From positions 1-24,343 of the forward strand of contig JBGSIV010000180.1 of the NCBI GenBank assembly GCA_041742355.1: a stretch of DNA of 24,343 nt, in the 5' to 3' direction. The notes under the pieces were generated by a model that had not been told where the DNA came from, did not search any database, and saw only the letters and a program-made list of their open reading frames with translations. Below, in pieces: positions 126 to 23,818 of the stretch. How positions within the stretch are numbered: the first letter of the stretch is position 1; each line of letters opens with the position of its first letter. Made by a program: the position numbers and the translations under genes. The stretch is from Candidatus Zixiibacteriota bacterium. Its GTDB lineage: Bacteria > Zixibacteria > MSB-5A5 > GN15 > FEB-12.

Positions 126-365
126 TCGTTACGGGCAGAATCGTACATGGACTCAAAGGGACAGATTCCCTGGATTGGCGTCCCCCGGCTCTTCCCCAAC
201 CCTCTCCTCCGGCCCCAGTATTTATTCCATGCCCGGGTCCAAACCCGTTGACTTTGAGTCCCCTTTTTGGTATTAATCAATTTCGCGATTTTTCCGGGTT
301 ACCCGGTCGCGACCTGAAAAGATGATTGAGAATCTTTGAATCAATAGAGGTTTGGAGGATACCCG

Positions 366-2447
366 GTGAAGGAATATCCAACTGACAAAATCCGTAATAT
401 CTGCCTGGCGGGGCAGCGGGGATGCGGCAAAACCAGCCTGGCCGACGCCGTGGCCTACGCCAGCGGCGTGAACAACCGCATCGGCCGGGTTGACGACGGT
501 TCCTCGCTGCTGGATTACACCGACAGCGAAATGGCCCGCCGAACCTCCCTGCAGCTCAAGCTGCTCGCGGCGCCGTGGAGAGACTGCAAAATCAACCTGT
601 TCGATGCCCCCGGGCACCTCGATTTCACCGGCGAATACCTCGCCGCCGCCAAGGCGTCCGACGCCGTCTGCTTCGTGGTGAACGCCACCTCGGGCGTCGA
701 GGTTGGCACCCAGCTGCACTGGCGTTCCGTAGCCGACTATCCGCTCGCCCGCTTCCTGTTCGTCAATAAGATCGAAATCGAAAACGCCAAGTGGCAGACC
801 ACGATCGATTCGATCCAGAACGTCTTCGGAACCCATGCCGTGCCGGTCGCGATTCCAATCGGCGAGGCGGACAAATTCCGCGGCGTGATCGATCTCCTCC
901 ACATGAAGGCGTACGAGTTCACGGCCGACGGATCGTCCAAGGAAATCGAAATTCCGGCCGATCTGAAAGATACCGCTCAGGCAGAGCGCGAGGCCCTGAT
1001 TGAGGTCGCAGCCGAAGCAAGTGATGCCCTGATGGAGAAGTTTTTCGACCAGGGGACCCTGCCCGATGAGGATGTCCGCAACGGCCTCCGCAACGGCATC
1101 GCCCAGGGAAAGCTCTATCCCATCCTGGTCGGAGCGGGCGGCAAGAATTGGGGCGTTTCCACGCTCCTGGACTTCATGGTCGAATACCTCCCCTCCCCGA
1201 ATCAGATGCCCCCGGTCAAAGCCAAGCGCAGCGGTCGCGATGAAGCTGTTACCGTGCCCTGTGATCCGAATGCGCCACCGGTCCTGTTTGTCTTCAAGAC
1301 GATTACCGAAGGCCACCTCGGCGAACTGGCCCTGTTCCGGATGTACTCCGGAAGCCTGACTTCCGGTATGGACCTGACCAACCAGCGCACGAGCAACGGC
1401 GAACGGGCCTCCCAGCTCTACACCCAGCAGGGCAAGAACCGTACCGAGATCAGCAAGATAGTCGCCGGAGATATCGGCATGCTGGTTAAGCTCAAAAACA
1501 CGAGCACCAATGACACTCTCGCCGGCGGCAACCTCCAGGTCGAGATGCTGCCGATCAAGTACCCCAACCCGGTTATGGATGTCGCCATCCAGCCGAAGTC
1601 CAAAGGGGACGAGGAAAAAATCGGTATGGGCCTGGCCAAGCTCAACCAGGAAGACCCGACGTTCCGCCTCATCCACGACGGCGCGCTCAAGCAGATGGTC
1701 ATCGTTGGCCAGGGTGCCACTCACATTGAGCTCCTGACAGAAAAACTTAAGAAGCGCTACGGCGTTGATGTCGAACTGGTCCGGCCGAAGATTCCCTACC
1801 GCGAGACAATCCGAGGGAAATCCGAGACCCAGTACCGCCACAAGAAACAATCGGGTGGCCGTGGTCAGTTTGCCGATGTCCACCTGCGCCTTGAGCCGAA
1901 TGAACGCGGTAAGGGTTTCGAGTTCCTTGATGAAATCAAGGGCGGTGTGATCCCCGGTAAGTTCATTCCGGCCATCGAAAAGGGCGTCACCGAAGCCCTG
2001 GCGCATGGTGGTCTGGCTGACTCCCAGGTGGTCGATGTCCGCGTCGCCGTCTTTTACGGCTCCTACCACGAAGTCGACTCCTCCGATATGGCCTTCAAGA
2101 TCGCCGGACTGATGGCCTTCAAGGAGGGTTTCATGCAGGCCAAACCGGTCCTGCTCGAACCGATCTACAGCGTCGAAATCCTCGTGCCGGACGAATTCAC
2201 CGGCGACGTCATGGGCGACCTTTCGTCGCGCCGTGGCAAGATCGCGGGCATGGATCCGGAGGGGCCTAATCAGCGCATTCGCGCACAGGTGCCGCAGGCC
2301 GAAATGTACCAGTACTCGGTCGACCTGCGCTCGATGACCCAGGGTCAGGGCGTCTACACGATGGAATTCTCCCATTATGAGGATATCCCGCACGAAGCCG
2401 CACAGAAAGTGATCGAGGAGGCCAAGGCGGCCAAACAGGAAGCTTAG
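366..2447 (+). CDS. fusA: Elongation factor G-like GTPase (divergent EF-G paralog, EF-G2 type), 693 aa
   Basis: KIRNICL-AGQRGCGKTSL (G1), DAPGHLDF (G3), NKIE (G4); domain IV/V motifs HKKQSGGRGQFADV, GSYHEVDSSDMAF, LLEPI, DLRSMTQGQG. GTG start with GGAGGA SD at 354-359. Confidence 0.93.
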   Translation: MKEYPTDKIRNICLAGQRGCGKTSLADAVAYASGVNNRIGRVDDGSSLLDYTDSEMARRTSLQLKLLAAPWRDCKINLFDAPGHLDFTGEYLAAAKASDAVCFVVNATSGVEVGTQLHWRSVADYPLARFLFVNKIEIENAKWQTTIDSIQNVFGTHAVPVAIPIGEADKFRGVIDLLHMKAYEFTADGSSKEIEIPADLKDTAQAEREALIEVAAEASDALMEKFFDQGTLPDEDVRNGLRNGIAQGKLYPILVGAGGKNWGVSTLLDFMVEYLPSPNQMPPVKAKRSGRDEAVTVPCDPNAPPVLFVFKTITEGHLGELALFRMYSGSLTSGMDLTNQRTSNGERASQLYTQQGKNRTEISKIVAGDIGMLVKLKNTSTNDTLAGGNLQVEMLPIKYPNPVMDVAIQPKSKGDEEKIGMGLAKLNQEDPTFRLIHDGALKQMVIVGQGATHIELLTEKLKKRYGVDVELVRPKIPYRETIRGKSETQYRHKKQSGGRGQFADVHLRLEPNERGKGFEFLDEIKGGVIPGKFIPAIEKGVTEALAHGGLADSQVVDVRVAVFYGSYHEVDSSDMAFKIAGLMAFKEGFMQAKPVLLEPIYSVEILVPDEFTGDVMGDLSSRRGKIAGMDPEGPNQRIRAQVPQAEMYQYSVDLRSMTQGQGVYTMEFSHYEDIPHEAAQKVIEEAKAAKQEA

Positions 2448-2481
2448 CCACCCGATCATCTATTGCTCATCTTGAATCTTC

Positions 2482-8951: not shown

Positions 8952-11762
8952 ATGTCTCAGCACATGATTGTCCGTTTGCTCCTGACCGCGAGCATCCTCC
9001 TGCTCGCCTCGTCGGTTTTCGCTGTTCCGCCTGATGAATTGCAGCCGCCGGTGTTCGTAGATTGTCCTGGGTCGGTGCGAGCTACGCATTGTGACGATTC
9101 CATCGTCAGGCAGTTCCGCGCCATAATTCCGAACCAGCCGCATGCCCAGGGCCGCGTACGCTACCGACTTGTCGGCGGATGCGGCACCATTGACGAAAAG
9201 TCTGGTCGCTGGGTGTGGTACCCGGAACCCGCTGATACTGCGAGGGCGTATGATGTCACCGTTGCCGCATACATTAACAACACCAACCTCGAGACTACTC
9301 CCGAGAACTACTGCCGCGTGTGGACATGGTACCGCGATAACTTTGGCAAGCTCATTTGGCTCCAACCGCCACTATCGGACTACGGCTATGTCCCAGTGTA
9401 TCGCGTTGATGCGCCGGGGCTGACAATTCTCCCCTATCGGATCAGCGAGCCCGATAGTTGCGACCATCCGGTTGTTTCGGTTTTCCAAATCGATCCAGAA
9501 CCAGCCGGGAGCATCACGTTTATTGATTCCTCTCTTGTCGTCACACTACTCCCTGCAGACAATGGCAAGAAATTCGTCGTGACCTATGAACTCACATCCG
9601 GCCCGTTCACTTATCACGGAACGGTGGTCATCGATACTCGGCCCCCTTTTGTTCCTCAGTTCACCAACTGCCCGGAGACCCTTTATGCCTCCGTGGGATC
9701 GCAGATCAGATATCAGCTTCATGCCGTCGACCCGGAGTACCCTGAGCTTTCTGCCGGCATTTATTACAAGCTGGTAAGCTCGGATTATTCTCGCCCCGGA
9801 TCGTACCGAGACGGTGTGTTCTGGTTTCGGGCCCGTCCTGAAGACGCGGGGCGTGAGTTTGAATTCGAACTCGCCGCCGTCTACGGTGATGCCTCAACCA
9901 CCGGCGACCAGAACTGCCGCTTCTGGGTGAAAGTGATTGAGAATTCTCCGCCTGAGTTCGTGAATTCGCCGTGCGATGTTGTCCAAGTAGCCCATGCGGA
10001 CAGCCCGCTCGAGTTTTCGACCACTGTCACTGCCATCGATCCGGACTCAGGCGACGTGGTCCCCCGGCTGTTCGTCCAGGAAGTCAATCCCACTCCGTTG
10101 AACGGTTACCTATTTGACCCCGGCACTGGCCGCTTCCAGATGACCATCCACCAGTCAGAATTGGGCACACAATTCAGTATCACCATTGGCGCCAGTGATC
10201 TTGTTGACACAGCTTACTGCACGTTCGGGTATCTCCATGATTATGACGCGCTGATCTCCCTTTCGATTGGGCACTCCTTTGGCGCTCCACAGGGCTTTCA
10301 CGAACGGATTGACATTACGGCCACCGAGAATGCCATGGCTCTCTGGGGCTTCGACGTGCTTATCGGTTATAACGCCGCCGTTCTTTCTTTCCAGACAGCC
10401 ATTCCGGGCGAAATCTATGATGAGTGCGCCTGGGAGTATTTCACGTACCGCTATGGCGCCAGTGGCAACTGCAACGGTCGCTGCCCCTCAGGCATGTTGC
10501 GTATCGTCGGTATCGCCGAAACTAACAACGGCAGCGCCCACCCATCCTGCTTTGCTGCCGACGCACCCTTTACTCTGGCGACCTTGGACTTCCTCATAAG
10601 TGACGATAGCACCTACAAATGCACATGGCAGCCGATTAGATTTTGGTGGATCGACTGTGGCGACAACCTATTCTCCTACCACGACGACTGGGACGTAAAC
10701 CCGTATGGTCAATCGCTTGCTACTTCGCGGTACGTTTACGACATTGACTCCACGAACGAGCACCGCCCCTTCTTCTTGTTACCGGATGGGGGCGAGCCAT
10801 TCCCGCGAACTACCGGTGTTCCGGATTCCTGCCTCATCGATGATTTCCATCCCCAATCTCGGCCATTGCGCCTAGTGAACTTCTACAATGGCGGCATCGA
10901 CATCGCCTGTTCCGACAGCGTCGACCGCTGCCAGGCAGGTGACCTGAACCTCAACGGCACTCAATGTGAAATTGCCGATGTTGTACTCTATGTCGATGGC
11001 CTCCTCTATGGCCCACGCATACTCACGGATTCAGTCTGCCAGATGAAGGCGAGCGATGCTAACAAGGATGGCTTCGAATGGTCTCTGGAGGATCTCGTTT
11101 ACTTGACTTACTTCGTAGTCGGACATCCCCTTCCCCCTGTTTCTCCCGATACACCGAGCGCCCACTTTCTCGTCAGCGGGTCAACCATCCGCGTCGATCC
11201 GGAGGTGCCGCTGGGCGCTATCTACATCATCTTTGATGGCTCTGTGGTGCCGACCATGAACGTAGCACGTGAGCACATGGCATATTCCTACGACCAGAAT
11301 GCAGACCTCACGCGTTGTCTCATTTCAGCGCTCTCCGCGGGTGAGTCCATTCATGCCGGCGATCTCATGACTCTCGACCACCCGGCCGCTATCCGAGAAC
11401 TGTCCGCCGTTACGGACTCGGGCGCCTCCGTGAACGAAATCCTTCTGGTGCCAACCGGCATAGATGATCCCGAGCCCCCCCTCCCCGCCTCCTTCTTCCT
11501 CTACCAGAACCACCCCAACCCGTTCAACCTCGAAACCGTCATCCCCTTCGACCTCCCCCAATCCGGCGAGGTCACGCTCGAAATCTTCAACGCCCTCGGC
11601 CAGTCCGTCCACCGTCGCACCGCCGCCTACCCCGCCGGCAACCACCAGTTCACCTGGAATGGCCACACAGACAACGGCGCTGTTGCCTCCAGCGGTATTT
11701 ATTACTATCGTGTCAGCAGCAATGACCACACCCGGACCCGTAAAATGGTGCTGTTGAAATGA
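8952..11762 (+). CDS. Large secreted modular protein: signal peptide, cadherin/Ig-like repeats, cohesin-like domain, dockerin-like domain, FlgD-Ig/T9SS type A-like C-terminal domain, 936 aa
   Basis: Signal peptide ending VFA. Repeats begin PPVFVDCP / VPQFTNCP / PPEFVNSPC. GFDVLIGYNAAVLSF is cohesin-like; paired GDLNLNG...IAD and SDANKDG...LED are dockerin-like Ca-binding loops; C-terminus QNHPNPFN...WNG...SGIYYYRV...KMVLLK. Confidence 0.8.
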   Translation: MSQHMIVRLLLTASILLLASSVFAVPPDELQPPVFVDCPGSVRATHCDDSIVRQFRAIIPNQPHAQGRVRYRLVGGCGTIDEKSGRWVWYPEPADTARAYDVTVAAYINNTNLETTPENYCRVWTWYRDNFGKLIWLQPPLSDYGYVPVYRVDAPGLTILPYRISEPDSCDHPVVSVFQIDPEPAGSITFIDSSLVVTLLPADNGKKFVVTYELTSGPFTYHGTVVIDTRPPFVPQFTNCPETLYASVGSQIRYQLHAVDPEYPELSAGIYYKLVSSDYSRPGSYRDGVFWFRARPEDAGREFEFELAAVYGDASTTGDQNCRFWVKVIENSPPEFVNSPCDVVQVAHADSPLEFSTTVTAIDPDSGDVVPRLFVQEVNPTPLNGYLFDPGTGRFQMTIHQSELGTQFSITIGASDLVDTAYCTFGYLHDYDALISLSIGHSFGAPQGFHERIDITATENAMALWGFDVLIGYNAAVLSFQTAIPGEIYDECAWEYFTYRYGASGNCNGRCPSGMLRIVGIAETNNGSAHPSCFAADAPFTLATLDFLISDDSTYKCTWQPIRFWWIDCGDNLFSYHDDWDVNPYGQSLATSRYVYDIDSTNEHRPFFLLPDGGEPFPRTTGVPDSCLIDDFHPQSRPLRLVNFYNGGIDIACSDSVDRCQAGDLNLNGTQCEIADVVLYVDGLLYGPRILTDSVCQMKASDANKDGFEWSLEDLVYLTYFVVGHPLPPVSPDTPSAHFLVSGSTIRVDPEVPLGAIYIIFDGSVVPTMNVAREHMAYSYDQNADLTRCLISALSAGESIHAGDLMTLDHPAAIRELSAVTDSGASVNEILLVPTGIDDPEPPLPASFFLYQNHPNPFNLETVIPFDLPQSGEVTLEIFNALGQSVHRRTAAYPAGNHQFTWNGHTDNGAVASSGIYYYRVSSNDHTRTRKMVLLK

Positions 11763-13066
11763 CCCGTCCGACTCCACGCGGAGTGTCTCACCTCGCGCTG
11801 CTATCGATTCTGGTTCTGATTTTCACCGGCTCCAGCGCTTCCTCCCAGTCGCTGGAGCCGTTTACTGTCCGCATCGACCGGGTGAACCTCACCACCAGCC
11901 GCGACGAAATCTCGGTCAACGTCGCGCTCCAGGCCGGCTGGGCCAACATGTCCGGTTTCGATTTCCTTATCGCCTACGAAAACGGCCCCCTGAAAATCAA
12001 GAGCATCACTCCCGGCGACCTCGGCAACCTGTGCGACTGGGAGTACTTCGCCTGGCGCTCCGGGCGCAATGGCCCTCGCGACGAATACAACCGCACCACC
12101 GACACCATCCGCGTCAGCGCCGCCGCCAGCCTGAACCTCGACCACCTCCCCGCCTGCTATACCCTCGAGCCGAAGCCGGTCACCCTGTTCACCATGAAAT
12201 TCCAGGTCGTTGCCGGCAGCCAGTGGACCTGCACCTACTCCCCCATCCGGTTCTACTGGCTGTCCTGCTACGATAACCGGATCTCCGTCCCGGCCTCGAT
12301 CATGCCCATGCCCCACGACGAAGTCGAGACGATCGCCCAGCGCGTCTTCGAACCCACCGGCTGGGAGATCTCTGGCAGCCGCACCACCCTTCCCGGATTT
12401 TTCGGCCCCCCCTCCGGCTGCGTTTCTATGGCTGAAAACTCTCCTGTGCCATACATCAATCTGGTCAACGGCGGCATCACGTTTGCCGCCGGATGCAAAC
12501 CCGACCTGCGGGGCGACATCAATCTCAACGGCACCCCGTACGAGATTGAGGATTCCTGGATCTTTGCCAAGTACCTCCTCTTCGGCGACACCACCCTCCG
12601 TCGCGCCGCCCTTGAAGCCACCGACATGAACCGCGACAGCCGTCCGGGGACAGTCGAAGACCTCGTCCTCCTTATGCGCGCCGTGCTCGGGGAGTATACT
12701 CCGGCCAACGTGCTCGCACTGGACGCCCCGTCTGCCAAAAGCAACCCGTTCGCTCCCCCGGCTCCGAGACCTGCCCGGGTCGACCTCTCGTTTGAGGACA
12801 ACGAACTCCTGCTGACCACTGCTGATACGCTCGTAGCCGCCCGCCTCGTGTTCTCCGGCCGGGTCTCGCCCCATCTGTACAACAAGCGGCTTGACCTGTA
12901 CGAGTCCTATATCGACGGTGAGACGCGCTTGCTCATCTACGGATTCTTCACCGACGCCACCTTTACCTCCGGCCCCTTCCTCTATTGGGAAGGTTCCGGC
13001 CGCCTCAAAGAGGCCTCGTTCGCCACCTCCGGTGGCGGGAAGGTCGATGTCCACATACGGCGCTGA
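11759..13066 (+). CDS. Secreted cohesin-like + dockerin-like protein, paralog of the C-terminal half of the upstream gene but lacking the CTD, 435 aa
   Basis: ATGA overlap with the upstream stop; signal peptide. Shares GFDFLIAY, CDWEYF, CTYSPIRFYWLSCYDN, NGGI, GDINLNG and DMNRD...VEDLV with the upstream protein. Confidence 0.8.
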   Translation: MTRPTPRGVSHLALLSILVLIFTGSSASSQSLEPFTVRIDRVNLTTSRDEISVNVALQAGWANMSGFDFLIAYENGPLKIKSITPGDLGNLCDWEYFAWRSGRNGPRDEYNRTTDTIRVSAAASLNLDHLPACYTLEPKPVTLFTMKFQVVAGSQWTCTYSPIRFYWLSCYDNRISVPASIMPMPHDEVETIAQRVFEPTGWEISGSRTTLPGFFGPPSGCVSMAENSPVPYINLVNGGITFAAGCKPDLRGDINLNGTPYEIEDSWIFAKYLLFGDTTLRRAALEATDMNRDSRPGTVEDLVLLMRAVLGEYTPANVLALDAPSAKSNPFAPPAPRPARVDLSFEDNELLLTTADTLVAARLVFSGRVSPHLYNKRLDLYESYIDGETRLLIYGFFTDATFTSGPFLYWEGSGRLKEASFATSGGGKVDVHIRR

Positions 13067-16124: not shown

Positions 16125-16814
16125 ATGAACCGTCTGACATGCATCCTCGTACTCAGTTTTGCCCTGGCGGTCTCCGTCCACGGCCAAAGCCGCCTGATTG
16201 CCCCGGTCGACCGGTTTGAATTCGGCGCCATTCCGACTGGAACCGTTCTCACTCACCATTTCTGGCTCAAGTCGATCGGGCAGGACACCGTTACGATCGA
16301 CACCGTGAAGACCGGCTGTTCCTGCGCCGTCACTCAGCTGGAGAAGACCGTTCTTCCCCCCGGTGACAGCGTTCTTCTCGGTATTCAGTGGGATATCAAG
16401 CGGTCGCAAGGCTCTGTCTTCAGATCCCCCATGATCTTCTACAACGGCAGCGACGAGGCCCTGCGCGTCCACCTTGGCGGAACGGTCTGGGACTACCCCG
16501 ACTCCGCCCGTCCGGCGAACATCAAACCGTTTCGTTTCGAACTCTCCCGTGCCGCGGTGAAGAATGTCGACCGCATCGAGTACAAACTGACGAACCACTC
16601 CGGGGAGACACTCCCGGTCCAGTTGGTCTCGCTCGTCCCCCCGCAGGTGGAACTGACAGTGCCCGACTCGATTCCGGCCAACGGCACAGTCTCCGGCATT
16701 GTCACGCTCCGCCCGGCCTTCCAGAATGAGGAGTTCAGCACGTCGGTGACATTTGTCATCGGGAGTCGCGACATCCAGCGGCTGACTGTCCCTATCCGGA
16801 GGAAATTCTACTAG
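16125..16814 (+). CDS. Exported DUF1573-like Ig-fold protein with CxC motif, 229 aa
   Basis: Signal peptide ending VHG; FEFGAI...HHFWLKSIGQDTVTIDTVKTGCSCAVT...LPPGDS, the typical DUF1573 pattern F.N.G..PL.I..V..SCGCT...I.PG. Confidence 0.8.
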   Translation: MNRLTCILVLSFALAVSVHGQSRLIAPVDRFEFGAIPTGTVLTHHFWLKSIGQDTVTIDTVKTGCSCAVTQLEKTVLPPGDSVLLGIQWDIKRSQGSVFRSPMIFYNGSDEALRVHLGGTVWDYPDSARPANIKPFRFELSRAAVKNVDRIEYKLTNHSGETLPVQLVSLVPPQVELTVPDSIPANGTVSGIVTLRPAFQNEEFSTSVTFVIGSRDIQRLTVPIRRKFY

Positions 16815-16825
16815 TCGGAATGACC

Positions 16826-16854
16826 TCGACAGCCCGCCGTTTTGTTTGTATATT
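16826..16854 (+). promoter_or_regulatory. Putative separate sigma70 promoter for the TGA-containing paralog
   Basis: TCGACA (16826-16831), 17 nt spacer, TATATT (16849-16854). Confidence 0.45.
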
Positions 16855-16899
16855 AGGTAAACCTGAACAAACCCCATAGACGTGGACTCGAAGTACGCT

Positions 16900-17658
16900 A
16901 TGAAGAGATGTAAGATCACGTTCCTCGGCCTGGCAGCTTTAGCAATCGTGGCGGGATCGGCCCTGAGTGCCCCGCGCCTGACAATTCCGGAATCCTCGTT
17001 CGATTTCGGTTTCGTCCCGCAGCACTCCAGCGTCTCCCACTCGTTCTGGCTCTACTCGACGGGAGACGATGAACTGAAGATTCTCAAAGTGGTGCCTGGC
17101 TGAGGCTGCACCAAGGCTCCGCTCGAAAAGACGGAGCTTGCTGTCGGTGACAGCACCCGGATTGAGATCATATTCGATACCAAGACCTACGCCTCGCGCG
17201 TGACAAAGCGGCCCAGCATCCAGACCAACGAGGGCCCGCCGGACAAACACGTGAGCATTATGGCCAATATCGTCCCGCGCCCGGACTCGACCTACCCGAT
17301 TATCATCAACCCGTACAAGGTCGATCTGTCGCAACTCGGAGAAAAGGTCATCGACCAGTCGCCGATCAGTATCGAGAACGTTTCCGATCAGCCGCTGGAG
17401 ATCAGCCTGATCGCCTCGGAAGGCGACTACTTCCGCCTTGACCTGCCCAAGTCGGTTGGCCCGGGACAGAAAGTGACCGGCAAGGTGACCCTGCTCGAAT
17501 CGGCTTTCGGGAATTCGTTCGAGAAGTCCTTTACGATCGAACTTACCGCGCCCGGCGGTGCCGAGGCTACCAAAACCCGTTTCACCGTCCCGGTGAAGCG
17601 CACCGTGCGCGTGGCCAATCAAGCCGGTGCGACCAATGTGCTCGGCGGCGGCCGCTAG
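16900..17658 (+). CDS. Exported DUF1573-like protein with in-frame TGA (codon 68) read as probable selenocysteine (UxC motif), 252 aa
   Basis: Track ORFs 16882..17103 and 17200..17658 share one frame and the only stop between them is TGA 17101-17103. Readthrough gives HSFWLYSTGDDELKILKVVPG-U-GCTKAPLEKTELAVGDS, colinear with the upstream paralog HHFWLKSIGQDTVTIDTVKTG-C-SCAVTQLEKTVLPPGDS. A hairpin follows the TGA. Confidence 0.78.
17108..17144 (+). promoter_or_regulatory. Candidate bacterial SECIS element
   Basis: CAAG-g-CTCCG-c-TC-[GAAAA]-GA-CGGAG-CTTG at 17112-17140, extendable by GCA/TGT. The apical loop starts with G at 17125, 21 nt after the TGA. Confidence 0.65.
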
Positions 17659-17686
17659 TACAGGCCGAAGCCACCGGTATAAACAC

Positions 17687-17723
17687 AGAAAGGCCGTCGA
17701 TCCATCCGGGTCGACGGCCTTCT
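17687..17723. terminator. Hairpin between convergent genes, probable bidirectional terminator
   Basis: AAGGCCGTCGA (17690-17700) ... TCGACGGCCTT (17711-17721), a perfect 11-bp stem. Confidence 0.7.
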
Positions 17724-17746
17724 CGTATCTGTCCTGACAGTCCCGC

Positions 17747-19156
17747 CTACATATCGTCGTTCAGGTCCGGGAAACCTTGCTCTATGATCTCCGCCCACTT
17801 CTTGTCGTAAATCTCCCCGTCGACATTCGAATGCACGAGGCGATATTCGTTGTTGTTCCGATCGTCCACGAAGACGAAAAACTTTCCCTCCTCTATATGC
17901 CAGTAGTACCAGATCTGGTACGGCACCCCGGTCACTGGCATCGATCGATCGTCCACCTGGTCCCACAAACCGTACGTCATGTAGATCCGGCCCCGCTCCG
18001 TTCTCCAACCGTCATCGCCGGTTTCGGTCACCGAAAAACGGTCGTTGGCGTACCGGTACCGCCGGAGCATCTCGGCTTTGTTCTCATTGACCGGAGTCGA
18101 CGGCGTGGGATCATGTTCCTGCCAGTACTGCTGCACGAAAGTCCGCTTCCCGTCGGGCGCGAGCCTGTCCAGCGTCTGGCGCTGGGCCGGGGTCAGCAGG
18201 TACCAGGTTAGGGCCACCTGTTGTTCCAGCGTGAGGCTGCTGTCGTCGTCCCCTTCACCCGCGAACGCCACCGGCGCCACGATCGCGAAGCGGATGCCAC
18301 AGGTATCGCTCGTACCGGACGAGGGATCATCGGCCACTACCTGGAGACGGTACCCGCCCGACAGCCAGCCCCGGATATCGATCGGCTCACCGAAAGCCAC
18401 CGACGCACCCTCGGCCGATCGCTTTCGACTGCTGATCGTGCGAATTGGCACCCCCTGGGCATCGAGCAGATCAAACGTCAGTCGGAACTCCTCGCCCTTC
18501 CCGTCCGCCGGAAGGTTGTACACCTCGCCGTAGACGTACATCATGCTGTCGCTCGTGCTGAACACCCCGACCGGATTGGGCAGCACCAGAAAACCGTTCC
18601 GGACCAGCCGCATGTTCACCGCCAGCGTGTCCGCAACCGGGGTCGCCCGATACGCCATGATCGGTCCGCCGACGGCAATCTGCCCCCGCACCGGCGGTTC
18701 CACCACGATTTCGTCCAGCAGCGCCGAACCGGTGCGCTTGCTGACGACATCGTACACCGTCAGTCGGGCCGTATAGATGCCCGGCTTCACGAACAGCATA
18801 AGCTTGTTGAACAGCCGGATTCCCGGAGCCGAAGCCTCGGCTTCATCGGCCACCCGCACCGAGAAGTACGTCGATCCCGAGTCCTGCGGAACCCCCGCTG
18901 AATTCAGCAAATCCACCTGGGCAAAGATCCGGGCATAGAGGAAACTATCCGCCTCATTGGGCCGGAAGAACTCGAATTCGCTGCGCGTCAGCGAAAACGG
19001 GAATTCCACCAGCGCCAGGGAGTCGTACGCCGGATCGGCAAACACCGCCGATCCCGCATAGATCGTCAGACCGCCGTCCCCGGACTGGCCCAGGACTGCG
19101 CCCGACGCACAGACCAACAGCACCAGGGTTGTATGAATCAATCGTGTGAGCTGCAT
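17747..19156 (-). CDS. GWxTD domain-containing exported protein, 469 aa
   Basis: Signal peptide; C-terminal YWQEHDPTPSTPVNE...RYRYANDRF...GWRTERGRIYMTYG...YQIWYY...FVFVD. Confidence 0.85.
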   Translation of the reverse strand: MQLTRLIHTTLVLLVCASGAVLGQSGDGGLTIYAGSAVFADPAYDSLALVEFPFSLTRSEFEFFRPNEADSFLYARIFAQVDLLNSAGVPQDSGSTYFSVRVADEAEASAPGIRLFNKLMLFVKPGIYTARLTVYDVVSKRTGSALLDEIVVEPPVRGQIAVGGPIMAYRATPVADTLAVNMRLVRNGFLVLPNPVGVFSTSDSMMYVYGEVYNLPADGKGEEFRLTFDLLDAQGVPIRTISSRKRSAEGASVAFGEPIDIRGWLSGGYRLQVVADDPSSGTSDTCGIRFAIVAPVAFAGEGDDDSSLTLEQQVALTWYLLTPAQRQTLDRLAPDGKRTFVQQYWQEHDPTPSTPVNENKAEMLRRYRYANDRFSVTETGDDGWRTERGRIYMTYGLWDQVDDRSMPVTGVPYQIWYYWHIEEGKFFVFVDDRNNNEYRLVHSNVDGEIYDKKWAEIIEQGFPDLNDDM

Positions 19157-19179: not shown

Positions 19180-20538
19180 TCAGAAATCCGGCCTCTGATT
19201 GAGACCGTCGTATGGATATTGCAGCCGGTACTCGCCGTCCTCGTTGACATCAACGAAAACAAACTTCCGATACCGGCCGTCACGGTAGTAGTGCCACTCC
19301 TGGTACGGATAGCGATCCGGGACCAGCGGATAGTCGTCGATCTGGTCCGGCTCGCCATACCGGATAAGAACCCGTCCCCGGTCCGTCCGCCACCCTTCCC
19401 GATTGAGCACCGAGAACAGCCGGTTGGCGGCATCGACCCGGTAGTAAAATGCGACCTTCAACTCGTTCACCGATGTCGACGGATCCGGATCCCGCTCGGC
19501 CCAAAAGTGCTCTATCGCCCTGACGCGCTCGGCAAGATCTTCGATCTTCCGCATCGGCTTCACATCTTTTCCGTCGGCGATCAGCTCCAGCTGATCCAGC
19601 GCGGCATCCCAATCGTGCCGGAGGATCGCGCTCGACGTCCACGGCACCCGGAAGGGCACCTTCTTCTCGTCGAGCTTCTTGTACCGTCGGCCGTGGAGCG
19701 ATACGGTCAACTCGTACTCGCCCGGCCGAAAATCCACCAGCGAAATCTCGCGCAACTGCCGCGTGACCCGCTCGTCCAACAATGCCGTCAAGCTGTCCCG
19801 GTAGACCATTCCCCTGGAATCCTGCCGGAGACTCGTCTCGATCGTCACCTCGCCCGAAGAATCGCTCCCCCGATGAATCTCGAGGTAAAACATCATCTTC
19901 CCCTGCTCCTCGGCGCTGAACGTACCGGTCAAGGACGGCACGACCATGAGCTTTCCCTTGGTGAAATCCTGCGGGACATCCCCCTCGGGCATCGGTCCCG
20001 CCGCCTGCACCAGTTCCACATCCGACAACTGCGGATTCTTGCTGTCGAACGGCTTCAGCTCGACATCGAAATCCCGCTTGTGCACCGACGACGAACCGAC
20101 CGATTCAAGGAGAAAGCCCAGTTCGTACTTCCCCGGCTCCAGATCAAAATTGACCTGCGCCGTCCGGAAGTCCCCCGTCGACTTGGTCTTGATCAACTGG
20201 TCAACCGTCGCCTCGCGTTCCTGCCGCGCGCTCTGGACAACCGTATCGGCGTCTTCGTCGATCACTCGGACCGTGGCCACATACCTTGCCCGGAACAGCT
20301 GGTCGGTGACCCGCTGGAACTCCAGACCGTAGTTGTATATCTGGTAGTAGATCTCGAGTCGGACCCGACCCGGGTCCTGGGAGGGAAATACACCGTAATC
20401 GACTATCAGCTTCCGATCTTCCGAGGGCACCGCGTTGCGCAGCATAAAGGGCTGCCCCGCCGCTTCCGCCGCCGTTAAGACCAGCAGCAACAAAAGGGCG
20501 GTCAGGCCGCCCCGGATATGCGCTTGTATCACACTCAT
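19180..20538 (-). CDS. GWxTD domain-containing exported protein, about 452 aa (start taken at MSVIQ, ATG 20538)
   Basis: FWAERDPDPSTSVNE...RVDAANRLF...GWRTDRGRVLIRYGEPD...YQEWHY...FVFVD; hydrophobic leader after ATG 20538. Confidence 0.85.
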   Translation of the reverse strand: MSVIQAHIRGGLTALLLLLVLTAAEAAGQPFMLRNAVPSEDRKLIVDYGVFPSQDPGRVRLEIYYQIYNYGLEFQRVTDQLFRARYVATVRVIDEDADTVVQSARQEREATVDQLIKTKSTGDFRTAQVNFDLEPGKYELGFLLESVGSSSVHKRDFDVELKPFDSKNPQLSDVELVQAAGPMPEGDVPQDFTKGKLMVVPSLTGTFSAEEQGKMMFYLEIHRGSDSSGEVTIETSLRQDSRGMVYRDSLTALLDERVTRQLREISLVDFRPGEYELTVSLHGRRYKKLDEKKVPFRVPWTSSAILRHDWDAALDQLELIADGKDVKPMRKIEDLAERVRAIEHFWAERDPDPSTSVNELKVAFYYRVDAANRLFSVLNREGWRTDRGRVLIRYGEPDQIDDYPLVPDRYPYQEWHYYRDGRYRKFVFVDVNEDGEYRLQYPYDGLNQRPDF

Positions 20539-20626
20539 TAAACGACCGGTGTCAAATCGCTGTTCCAAGTTACCGACGCACAGACCGGGGGGCAACATCA
20601 AAAACTATTTTCGAAAAGACGGGAAT

Positions 20627-21880
20627 TTACTCGTACCGAAGCGCCTCGATCGGATCCAGCCGGGCGGCTTTTACCGCCGGGTACATGCCCGACACCATGC
20701 CCACCGAAACCGCCACCGCAAACCCGATCAGGATCCAGAAGAGCGAGACCGTCAGCGGAAAACCCGCGAGGCTGTTAACACCAACCCCGAGAAGAACCCC
20801 GATCACGATCCCAATCAGCCCCCCGGTGGCGCTCAGGGTCGTGGCTTCCGTGAGAAATTGCAGCAGAATATTGGACTTCTTGGCCCCGATCGCCTTGCGC
20901 ACCCCAATCTCCCGGGTCCGCTCGGTGACCGAAACCAGCATGATATTCATCACCCCGATTCCCCCCACCATCAGCCCCACCGACGTAATCACCAGCATCG
21001 CGATGTAAATCACTCCGGTGATCTCCTCCACCTTCTCCTTGTACGTATCCTGGGTCACCAGCTCGAAGTTGTTCTCCTTCCCGAAGGGAACTCTCCGGTA
21101 CACCCGCAGCGCGTTGATAATCTCCTCCTCGGCCTGCTCGAGCTTGTCCAGCGACTCCGCTCGAACCGACAGGCTCAACGCTTCTTCCCAGGGATGGATC
21201 TTTTCAAACGTCGACAACGGTATCGCCACCCACTGGTTCTCGTATGATTCTCCGAAATTCGACTCGATCTTCTCGAAGACCCCGATCACCTCGAACCGGT
21301 TCCCGTTGACCCGAATCTCCTGTCCGATCGGTTGATCCCCCTCGAACAACGAGTTCGCAATCTCGTGGCCGATCACCGCCACCTGGGCGCGACGCTCAAC
21401 GTCCCCTTCCGTGATAAACCTGCCCTGCTGCAGCGACCGATCCGCCACCCGGACATAGTCGGGCCACGTCCCGAGGTAGGTTATATTCGTCGCTTTCCGG
21501 TTCTTGTACTTGGCCACGTTCCCCCCAGGCGCCCAGTACCGGTTGGTCGGCGCCACACCGTCGACCGACGGGCAGTTGGCTTTGATCGCCATCGCCTCCC
21601 CGACCGTCAGCTCCGGACGGTTGCGCTGATCTTCGGTCATATCGTCCCAGTCCATGAACTCCGGCAGCCGCCGCACATCGATAATGGCCGCCGACCCCAT
21701 GTTGGCGATCTCCTCCTCCATCGCCAGGTTCAGCCCATTGATGATCGACGCCAGGCCGATCACGGCCGCCACGCCGATGAGCACACCCAGGATTGTCAGG
21801 AACGACCGCAGCTTGTTCGCGCGCAGCGAACCCAGCGCCATCCCGATTGAGTCCCGTATTTCGACCGTCGTCAGTACCAT
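20627..21880 (-). CDS. MacB/FtsX-family ABC transporter permease, 417 aa
   Basis: NKLRSFLTILGVLIGV, large periplasmic domain, VGGIGVMNIMLVSVTERTREIGVRKAIGA, PAVKAARLDPIEALRYE. Confidence 0.93.
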   Translation of the reverse strand: MVLTTVEIRDSIGMALGSLRANKLRSFLTILGVLIGVAAVIGLASIINGLNLAMEEEIANMGSAAIIDVRRLPEFMDWDDMTEDQRNRPELTVGEAMAIKANCPSVDGVAPTNRYWAPGGNVAKYKNRKATNITYLGTWPDYVRVADRSLQQGRFITEGDVERRAQVAVIGHEIANSLFEGDQPIGQEIRVNGNRFEVIGVFEKIESNFGESYENQWVAIPLSTFEKIHPWEEALSLSVRAESLDKLEQAEEEIINALRVYRRVPFGKENNFELVTQDTYKEKVEEITGVIYIAMLVITSVGLMVGGIGVMNIMLVSVTERTREIGVRKAIGAKKSNILLQFLTEATTLSATGGLIGIVIGVLLGVGVNSLAGFPLTVSLFWILIGFAVAVSVGMVSGMYPAVKAARLDPIEALRYE

Positions 21881-21884
21881 TACC

Positions 21885-23105
21885 CTACTCGTAGCTCAGC
21901 GCTTTTATGGGATCCATCCGGGCCGCTTTCATCGCCGGGAATATCCCGAAGACCAAACCGACCGACGTCGAGATCGTCAGCCCCATCGCAATGGCCAGGC
22001 CCGACGGGGATATGTTTATGTTGATCATAGCGATCACCGCCTTGGCGATGAAGAACCCCAGCACGATGCCGATGACTCCGCCCAGCAGCGTCGTAATAAG
22101 GGCTTCAAACAGGAATTGCATCAGGATGTGGTTCTGCTTGGCCCCAACCGCCTTGCGGATGCCGATCTCCCGCGTGCGCTCGGTCACCGCCACCATCATG
22201 ATGTTCATGACCACGATCCCCCCGACCACGATCGAGATCATCGAAATTCCGAACAACCCGAACCGGAACAACCGGGTCGCGTTGTTGAGCACCTCGAGGA
22301 TAGTGTCCGCCGTCAGCACGTCGAAATCATCCGGCTTGTCAAAAGACACGTGCCGCGCCGACCGCAACACCATGCGCACCTGGTCCATCGCCTCAGGAAG
22401 CTGCGCCACGGAGAGCGCCTTCACCACTATGTGAATGCCCCGGTCAAAACTCCCGAAGTCCCGACGGTGCGTGCTGAACGGGATGTAGATGCGCTCATCC
22501 TGCTCCGCCCCGAACAATCCGCCCACCTCTTTGCCCAAACCGATCACCGTGTACTTCCGCCCCGCGACTCGAATATCTTTGCCGATCGGGTCTAACCCGT
22601 TGAACAGCTCTTCATACACCTTGTGGCCGATAAACGCCACCCGCCGCTTGTGCAGGTCGTCTTCGGCCGAGTGGAAACGCCCCTCGGCCACCTCGAGATC
22701 GACAATTTCTATTCGATTGGACGTCACCCCGACGACAGGAACATCCCGCAGCGATCGATCGCCGTACTTGACGTCCGACTGCCCCCACGTTCCCGGGGAC
22801 ACCTTCTCGCACAGGTCGCACCCCTCCTCGATCATCGCCGTGTACTCCTCGCGAAGCGGCTTCCGCTTGATCTTCTCCAGCCACTCCTTCTCCGACATCG
22901 CCATCGCGATCCGCTGCACGAAAAACGTCGCAGGGCCCATCTTGTCGAACTCCGCCTCGATCGAATCCTGCATCCCCTCCAGGGCCGAAATAATCGTGAT
23001 GACCGAGGTCACCCCGATAATGATGCCGAGGAGTGTCAGCCCCGACCGGAGCTTGTTGGCCCACAGGGCCGCAAATGAGAGGCGCAGTATCGACCCGGTA
23101 ATCAT
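21885..23105 (-). CDS. MacB/FtsX-family ABC transporter permease (second paralog; ATG 23105 or TTG 23111)
   Basis: NKLRSGLTLLGIIIGV, VGGIVVMNIMMVAVTERTREIGIRKAVGA, PAMKAARMDPIKALSYE. Confidence 0.93.
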   Translation of the reverse strand: MITGSILRLSFAALWANKLRSGLTLLGIIIGVTSVITIISALEGMQDSIEAEFDKMGPATFFVQRIAMAMSEKEWLEKIKRKPLREEYTAMIEEGCDLCEKVSPGTWGQSDVKYGDRSLRDVPVVGVTSNRIEIVDLEVAEGRFHSAEDDLHKRRVAFIGHKVYEELFNGLDPIGKDIRVAGRKYTVIGLGKEVGGLFGAEQDERIYIPFSTHRRDFGSFDRGIHIVVKALSVAQLPEAMDQVRMVLRSARHVSFDKPDDFDVLTADTILEVLNNATRLFRFGLFGISMISIVVGGIVVMNIMMVAVTERTREIGIRKAVGAKQNHILMQFLFEALITTLLGGVIGIVLGFFIAKAVIAMININISPSGLAIAMGLTISTSVGLVFGIFPAMKAARMDPIKALSYE

Positions 23106-23107
23106 GC

Positions 23108-23818
23108 TCAACTCTGGTAGGTCATCCGCGTATGTTCCGGAACAACTTCGTCGCTGGCGATCTGTCCGTCAAAGATAGACAGTACCCGCCGCGCGTGTTT
23201 CGCGATATCCGGCTCGTGCGTCACGAGAATAATCGTGTTCCCCAGCCGGTGCAGCTGATCGAACAGCCGCATAATGTCGATCGAGGTCTTGCTGTCGAGG
23301 TTGCCGGTAGGCTCGTCGGCCAGAATGAGCGACGGCTTGTTGACCAGCGCCCGGGCAATCGCCACCCGCTGCCGCTGGCCGCCCGAAAGCTCGTTCGGCT
23401 TGTGGTGCATCCGGTCCGTCAGTTCCACGCGCCCGAGCGCATCCTCCGCCATCGCCCGACGCTCTGTCGCCGAGGATCCGTTGTAGATCAGCGGCAACTC
23501 GACGTTGTGCAGCGCCGTCGCCCGAGGCAGCAGGTTGAAGGTCTGAAAGACGAACCCGATCTCCCGGTTGCGGATATTGGCCAGCTCGTCGTCGTTCATC
23601 CCGGCGACTGCTTTCCCGTTGAGAAAGTACTCGCCGCTGGAGGGTGTATCGAGACACCCGATCAGGTTCATCAGAGTCGACTTGCCCGACCCCGACGGCC
23701 CCATGATCGCCACGTACTCCCCGCGCTCGATCGCAATGGTCACCCCCCGCAGCGCGTTGACCGTCTCCGCCCCCATCTGGTATTTCTTCCAGAGATCTTT
23801 CGTTTCAATGAGCGCCAT
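23108..23818 (-). CDS. ABC transporter ATP-binding protein, MacB/LolD-type, 236 aa
   Basis: Walker [20 protein letters not shown], signature LSGGQRQR, Walker [16 protein letters not shown]. Confidence 0.95.

Follow-up and report, generated by a model that had tools for sequence, protein, structure and literature searches.

The closest described relatives of the gene reported here are the selenoproteins named OS_HP2. Excerpts of the published record place OS_HP2 among the new selenoproteins of Olavius symbionts (Zhang and Gladyshev, 2007; PMC1976440), the corresponding entry of an ocean-sampling study reads "OS_HP2, pfam07610, UxC" (Zhang and Gladyshev, 2008; PMC2398784), and entries in two reviews (PMC9312934, 2022; PMC13188914, 2026) give "DUF1573 domain-containing protein" with pfam07610 or PF07610 and the motif UGC. 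In the tables that carry these entries, OS_HP2 is a predicted selenoprotein listed without a function, which is also its status here. We analyzed a stretch of 24,343 nucleotides from a Candidatus Zixiibacteriota bacterium (GenBank assembly GCA_041742355.1, contig JBGSIV010000180.1, positions 1 to 24,343 of the forward strand), hereafter called the window. Between positions 16900 and 17658, the window carries a gene that, by its sequence, is a member of this already catalogued selenoprotein family, OS_HP2/DUF1573, and a new two-domain one from Zixibacteria. It is highly probable, in our assessment, that this is one gene for an exported DUF1573 selenoprotein with two immunoglobulin (Ig)-like domains, and that its UGA codon would be decoded as selenocysteine (Sec) by the machinery of the same genome, directed by RNA structure within the coding sequence (CDS). 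The coordinates of all features are collected in Table 1.

The protein scored 62.3 bits against NF041425 (OS_HP2_seleno), the NCBIfam model of the family, below the cut-off of 100, and thus falls outside this narrow model; none of the six DUF1573 genes of the genome reached the cut-off. A literature search that combined "Zixibacteria" and "selenocysteine" listed no title on a DUF1573 selenoprotein family, and a search for "DUF1573" returned, outside the selenoprotein papers, no title on DUF1573 function.

A preliminary description of the window, made from the letters alone, had read two open reading frames (ORFs) as one frame broken only by a TGA at positions 17101-17103 and had proposed a Sec-containing protein. 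Retranslation bore out the single frame, which runs from an ATG at 16900 to a TAG at 17656-17658 (252 codons), with the TGA as its sole interruption and no frameshift. When ORFs are called with translation table 11, the gene falls into two pieces, one of 73 amino acids (16882-17103) and one of 152 amino acids that begins at the GTG at 17200 (17200-17658). TGA is the ordinary terminator of the window ORFs that end at 11762, 13066, and 15969. As the same description had argued from these three sites, the standard code therefore applies and there is no genome-wide recoding. Since spurious long ORFs are frequent in this G+C-rich window, the excess over chance rests on comparison with other sequences and not on the open frame.

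The nearest such comparison is with the adjoining upstream gene, a tandem DUF1573 paralogue. The two proteins are 32% identical over 234 residues (E = 2e-30), and the similarity extends to both sides of the TGA. The alignment places VKTG-C-S-C of the paralogue opposite VVPG-U-G-C of the read-through protein, the correspondence that had first drawn attention to the TGA, so that the interrupted position matches the first Cys of a CxC motif.

We searched the read-through protein against 61 genomes, consisting of its own and those of 60 relatives within its genus, family, and order. All 61 contained matches, and most of the best matches had exactly one in-frame TGA. When 65 DUF1573 ORFs of the first 30 loci were aligned, the Sec column held TGA in 30 ORFs, Cys in 33, Thr in one, and a gap in one; the TGA occupied this common column in every one of the 30 genes carrying it (hereafter Sec forms). 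After 35 further regions were fetched, the motif [P/T]G-U-[G/S/A]-C had been found in a total of 63 genes, distributed over 55 of the 61 genomes, and orthologues with TGA at this codon reached down to ~36-44% identity. Two rows listed with one TGA (G001:C31 and G044:C10) were rejected as Sec forms, as they proved to be Cys forms in which the terminal stop had been read through. We also searched a sample of 201 genomes from the phylum. Among the 150 top matches listed, nearly all of which came from the same order (families f1-f4), most carried one TGA, and the best E-values outside the order were mostly much weaker.

Selection was examined on both sides of the TGA by comparing the gene with six orthologues. 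The ratio of nonsynonymous to synonymous substitution rates (dN/dS) was 0.07-0.10 upstream of the TGA (where defined), 0.08-0.20 downstream over residues 69-125, and 0.13-0.22 over residues 126-240, values that are only rough because dS is saturated (~1 or more). The values upstream of the TGA and the range of 0.08-0.22 downstream of it indicate purifying selection on both halves of the gene.

The genome, which is 93.8% complete in 310 contigs, encodes the machinery for Sec incorporation. SelA was identified with 407.7 bits. The tRNA-Sec scored 66.8 bits, and ARAGORN calls it SeC with the anticodon TCA. The C-terminal 455 residues of SelB were found, the gene being truncated by the end of a contig. 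SelD (377.8 bits; C212:3483-4403, reverse strand) itself has an in-frame TGA, in the motif CAGUASK. Four further genes with an in-frame TGA, including a second DUF1573 gene with a U-G-C motif, are given in Table 1. The initial proposal of a Sec-containing protein is thus supported by the conservation of TGA in relatives whose paralogs carry TGC or TGT there, by the presence of selA, selB, selC, and selD in one genome (selB cut by a contig end), and by purifying selection downstream. From these comparisons, the TGA at 17101-17103 is almost certainly the Sec codon of a genuine, predicted selenoprotein gene.

Bacterial Sec codons are read with the help of a selenocysteine insertion sequence (SECIS), and the canonical elements, such as those of Escherichia coli fdhF and Moorella fdhA, are hairpins with a GGUC-type apical loop that is bound by SelB. 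The preliminary description had mentioned a hairpin downstream of the TGA. One is present at 17114-17139 (hairpin 1), but it is insignificant when only this sequence is folded, and the best-supported signal is instead a second hairpin at 17140-17154 (hairpin 2). These conclusions come from an ungapped alignment of the 63 Sec forms in which column 1 corresponds to position 17101. Within it, 80.6% of the cells of hairpin 1 are paired. Its sequence is variable and two of its pairs show compensatory changes (pair 18-35: UA 29, AU 9, GC 7, GU 7; pair 21-32: UA 31, GC 11). For hairpin 2, 98.4% of the cells are paired, and RNAalifold, run blind, returned this hairpin as the main consensus helix. When the two hairpins were scored jointly, pairing was 88.2%, and covariation was 0.142, compared to 0.076 in shuffled alignments (none of 500 reached the observed value) and at most 0.060 when the pairing partners were slid. 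The 36 nucleotides (nt) that separate the UGA from hairpin 2 consist of 10 free nt and the 26 nt of hairpin 1.

The two kinds of genes differ at hairpin 2. All six of its pairs form in 61 of the 62 Sec forms, compared to none of the 33 Cys forms, in which at most four pairs are found. The Ala codon within the hairpin is GCT in 61 of 61 Sec forms but in only 4 of 22 Cys forms, the Asp codon is GAC in 62 of 62 versus 25 of 33, and the Ser codon is AGC in 60 of 62 versus 17 of 33; as the Cys rows of this control all derive from loci adjoining Sec genes, they do not sample the family at random. At the level of the aligned sequences, these differences show a constraint on the RNA, including fixed synonymous codons, that is limited to the Sec forms. 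We also considered a long helix that would pair 17105-17112 with 17146-17154 and enclose hairpin 1. Its variable columns are uncompensated (25, 12, and 19 unpaired cells at pairs 6-53, 10-48, and 12-46, respectively), and the local hairpin 2 is therefore preferred.

Since hairpin 2 is invariant in sequence and carries a GGU loop similar to the GGUC loops that follow the UGA of three further selenoprotein genes here, it is likely to be the SelB-binding part of the SECIS signal, an assignment that we regard as putative. In the three other selenoprotein genes that we inspected (peroxiredoxin and thioredoxin-type), GGUC falls within an apical loop or close to one, ~16-27 nt downstream of the UGA; in the SelD gene, a loop that contains GU is found at a similar distance.

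The read-through protein matches PF07610 (DUF1573) with 76.7 bits, compared to a gathering cut-off of 26.1. The match covers residues 28-124 and profile positions 2-98 of 98, and thus spans the TGA. The HYDIN/VesB-type Ig-like family PF22544 also matches, with 57.2 bits. No Pfam family matched the second domain (residues ~126-235) in the profile scan. We modeled the protein with AlphaFold2, using an alignment of 69 sequences and substituting Cys for Sec. The model has a mean predicted local distance difference test (pLDDT) score of 92.7 and a predicted template modeling score (pTM) of 0.85, and consists of two beta-sandwich domains, with the U-G-C motif in the loop region between strands 59-65 and 85-93 of the first. 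In the 69-protein alignment, G67, C68 (the Sec position), and C70 are invariant and H47, D84, and S85 are nearly so. The N-terminal signal peptide that had been noted at the outset is present as a predicted feature when the sequence is read by eye (MKRCK, a hydrophobic stretch, then ALS|AP), and the model has a helix at residues 2-20; the protein is predicted to be exported by way of this peptide.

Several observations weigh against the explanation outlined above. For the RNA, the single-sequence fold of 81 nt has a z-score of -1.26, with 19 of 200 shuffled sequences folding as well, and an Rfam scan of 16800-17800 at E-values up to 10 gave two chance matches and no SECIS family. About 19% of the hairpin 1 cells are unpaired, and RNAalifold did not predict hairpin 1 from the Sec-form alignment. 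In hairpin 2, the loop starts 42 nt downstream of the UGA, farther away than in the genome's other selenoprotein genes and outside the window of 16-37 nt that bacterial SECIS searches assume. For the gene, no Sec form was among the matches listed in six of the 61 genomes (G003, G004, G009, G028, G031, and G046), three of which are less than 90% complete, and the saturation of dS blunts the measure of selection. For the function, a sequence search of the PDB with the protein gave no match at E-values up to 1, and a Foldseek search with the model returned only ASH/PapD-like Ig domains (E-values from 2.4e-13 to 1e-8), which offer no functional lead. The template modeling (TM) scores of these matches were low, at 0.31-0.37, partly because the relative orientation of the domains differs.

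The position of hairpin 2 bears directly on which of the two hairpins SelB might recognize. If hairpin 1 were the SelB-binding element, its loop, 18-28 nt after the UGA, would lie at the canonical distance, as in the other selenoprotein genes of the genome; this reading also has in its favor the compensatory changes at two pairs. Hairpin 2 would then be an accessory that, for example, causes ribosomes to pause or stabilizes the fold. We consider this assignment the less likely one, although a serious alternative, as the sequence of hairpin 1 varies, a fifth or so of its cells are unpaired, and it is absent from the RNAalifold consensus, while hairpin 2 does not vary in sequence and its GGU loop matches the type of GGUC loop present in other genes of the genome. 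In the explanation that we favor, the UGA at 17101-17103 would be decoded as Sec by the genome's own SelA, SelB, SelC, and SelD, the invariant hairpin 2 (17140-17154) would bind SelB, and hairpin 1 (17114-17139) would serve as a structured spacer that brings hairpin 2 into range. The U-G-C pair would cycle via a selenenylsulfide outside the cytoplasm.

The last of these steps is tentative. The gene points to the U/C-x-C motif as the probable active site of DUF1573. That it forms a vicinal selenol/thiol (selenenylsulfide) redox center outside the cytoplasm is a putative function to which we give a little less than an even chance. This function is favored because Sec stands in for the leading Cys of a CxC motif, because most catalogued selenoproteins are redox proteins, and because the genome exports other Sec-containing redox proteins. 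In a competing account, the protein is the same selenoprotein but its U-G-C motif, perhaps together with H47 and D84, binds a soft metal or metalloid, such as Cu(I), Hg, Cd, or As, in the periplasm. Several protein families use CxC motifs to bind metals, H47, D84, and S85 hardly vary in a protein whose C68 and C70 are invariant, and selenoproteome tables contain several metal-related entries, among them mercuric transport proteins, a cation ATPase, and a YHS domain protein. Within the window, no metal-handling genes were seen adjoining the gene, and the predominance of redox enzymes among catalogued selenoproteins speaks against metal binding as well; we regard it as the less likely of the two functions, although one to be taken seriously.

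A broader claim would be that DUF1573 is an unrecognized extracytoplasmic center, for redox chemistry or for a chalcophile metal, built on an ASH/PapD-like beta-sandwich, and that the U-G-C protein and its C-x-C paralogue form a relay pair, with a two-part SECIS as a further possibility. We think this unlikely. If it were true, the geometry of a two-part SECIS, with a GGU hairpin 36 nt after the UGA, would lie outside the range assumed by bacterial SECIS searches.

We examined a sample of 121 sequences from a protein catalogue, consisting of the query and its 120 best matches. The Sec position was part of a CxC motif in 110 sequences, some of which may be annotated Sec forms because U is displayed as C in this sample; it was W in five, and six lacked the motif, four of these being fragments of 152-179 residues. 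All were named either "DUF1573 domain-containing protein" or "hypothetical protein". The expectation that gene callers would split the gene was borne out, as the catalogue holds the 152-residue fragment of the window along with other fragments and the five W versions. The latter (P0007, P0018, P0068, P0072, and P0086) read PGWGCT and all have the AVGDS signature of Sec forms, and they probably arose when the source pipeline translated these genes with a code in which TGA is Trp. Insertion of Trp or Cys by near-cognate tRNAs, or some other suppression of the UGA, could claim support from such W versions. These reflect a pipeline's choice of genetic code and not biology, however, and TGA is a normal stop in other genes of the window, the Sec machinery is complete and its SelD has a Sec codon of its own, the position aligns with a Cys of the CxC motif, and the RNA element is specific to the Sec forms. 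Readthrough of this kind is accordingly very improbable. Although table 11 ORF calling gives exactly the two pieces expected of two separate genes (a 67-residue peptide and the 152-residue ORF from GTG 17200), that arrangement, like a pseudogene, a private nonsense mutation, or a sequencing error, has a negligible chance of being correct, given TGA at this codon in 54 genomes besides its own and conservation (dN/dS 0.08-0.20) of residues 69-100, which lie between the TGA and GTG 17200 and inside the Pfam domain.

Table 1. Features of the DUF1573 selenoprotein locus (window coordinates) and other genes of the genome with an in-frame TGA (contig handle and coordinates)
Feature	Position	Strand	Evidence
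DUF1573 selenoprotein CDS (predicted), 252 residues, Sec at codon 68	16900..17658	+	Translation with TGA=U; PF07610 match; orthologues with one TGA
Signal peptide of the Sec (export) type, predicted, residues 1-23, cleavage after ALS	16900..16968	+	Read by eye; model helix 2-20
DUF1573/HYDIN-VesB-type Ig-like domain with U-G-C motif, residues 28-124	16981..17271	+	Pfam; averages of pLDDT over 10-residue blocks 92-98
In-frame TGA, predicted selenocysteine codon U68	17101..17103	+	Column conservation; Cys in paralogs
TGC, Cys70, partner residue of U-x-C	17107..17109	+	C70 invariant in 69-protein alignment; TGC in 57/62 Sec forms vs 16/33 Cys forms
Hairpin 1, 8-bp stem 17114-17121/17132-17139, apical loop 18-28 nt after UGA	17114..17139	+	Fold, covariation
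Hairpin 2, GCUGUC-GGU-GACAGC, 6-bp stem, GGN loop, starts 36 nt after UGA	17140..17154	+	Pairing, RNAalifold
Second beta-sandwich domain, residues ~126-235	17275..17604	+	Model strands 134-234, block pLDDT 84-98; tandem Ig-like Foldseek matches
Upstream tandem DUF1573 paralogue, C-S-C (Cys form)	16125..16814	+	PF07610; 32% identity to Sec protein
Sigma-70-like promoter match before Sec gene, consensus match only	16826..16854	+	10/12 positions; 4 such sites in region vs 0.5 expected
9-bp perfect palindromic hairpin GGCCGTCGA ... TCGACGGCC between convergent gene ends	17692..17719	.	Read from sequence
GWxTD-domain gene, convergent neighbor	17747..19156	-	PF20094; beside Sec gene in 33/35 related loci
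Peroxiredoxin with in-frame TGA, FTFVUPTE	C179:11408-11806	-	
BCP-type peroxiredoxin with in-frame TGA, TPGUKNQ	C165:2901-3266	+	
Thioredoxin-type protein with in-frame TGA, DWUKYC	C121:35336-35596	-	
Second DUF1573 U-G-C gene	C240:280-927	-	

The neighborhood of the gene recurs in relatives. A match to the Cys paralogue was found in all 35 related loci, adjoining the Sec gene on its upstream side in most. A FAD-linked oxidase lies upstream in 14 of the 35, many of the flanks being too short to show the gene. Between the Sec gene and its convergent GWxTD neighbor, the palindrome at 17692-17719 may act as a bidirectional terminator; a scan with a terminator consensus did not call it. A second, tandem GWxTD-domain gene (19180-20601, reverse strand) is likewise convergent with the DUF1573 pair and is followed by a MacB/FtsX-type ATP-binding cassette transporter module (20627-23818, reverse strand) of two permeases with MacB periplasmic domains and an ATPase. 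Elsewhere in the window, a 936-residue protein (8952-11762, forward strand) has a C-terminal type IX secretion sorting domain. The ORFs at 273-2459 (reverse strand, 728 residues) and 11759-13066 (forward strand, 435 residues) had no Pfam match, and the ATG of the latter and the TGA that ends the gene before it overlap by four bases (ATGA).

A quick tree of 96 rows separated a Cys-only clade of 24, that of the upstream paralogue, from a clade of 72 made up of 62 Sec forms and 10 Cys forms. Parsimony on this tree gave 10 changes between Sec and Cys, at least three of which are forced by well-supported branches, and several Cys copies grouped beside the Sec gene of their own locus. This pattern suggests that, on the evidence of the tree, Sec may have been replaced recurrently by Cys after tandem duplication. 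Cys-form tandem duplicates that adjoin the Sec gene and do not have hairpin 2 were seen at eight loci (L016, L021, L028, L031, L032, L035, L040, and L043). At another locus (L077; G017:C7:86976-87941), a second copy of the Sec form is seemingly broken, as its frame changes past approximately query residue 144, with the C-terminal part matching in another frame.

DUF1573 is a widespread domain, and our finding reveals no new kind of system. It corrects the annotation of a conserved gene in an order of uncultured Zixibacteria, a gene that is now split or given Trp at the Sec position. What seems worth keeping is the invariant, Sec-specific hairpin at an unusual distance from the UGA, in a gene that is nearly universal in one order of Zixibacteria and whose recurring Cys copies lack the hairpin. 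Set side by side, the Sec forms and the Cys duplicates in tandem with them provide a clean natural contrast, which could help to define SelB recognition in this phylum and to tune selenoprotein finders.

How the locus compares to known systems differs between fold, RNA signal, and family. With the ASH/PapD-like (MSP-fold) Ig domains, the protein shares a tandem beta-sandwich fold and the match to PF22544. The relatives that Foldseek listed are HYDIN and other ciliary central-apparatus proteins, the SPD-2 domain of CEP192, and PDB entry 2qsv, a Porphyromonas gingivalis protein without a described function. These are structural or scaffolding domains, none of them described as a redox protein or enzyme, unlike the role proposed here. 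As in a canonical SECIS, a stem-loop with a G-G-U loop on a G+C-rich stem lies inside the CDS downstream of the UGA. Unlike a canonical SECIS, the GGU hairpin starts 36 nt after the UGA, hairpin 1 occupies most of the gap, and the loop is one of 3 nt (GGN) and not GGUC. With the OS_HP2/DUF1573 selenoproteins, as far as their published entries describe them, the gene has in common the pfam07610 domain, the U-G-C motif (VVPG-U-G-C-T here), and Sec at the first Cys of CxC. Compared by description, the original OS_HP2 proteins belong to deltaproteobacterial worm symbionts and ocean metagenomes, and the present gene is a two-domain form of ~250 residues from Zixibacteria, accompanied by a conserved tandem Cys paralogue.

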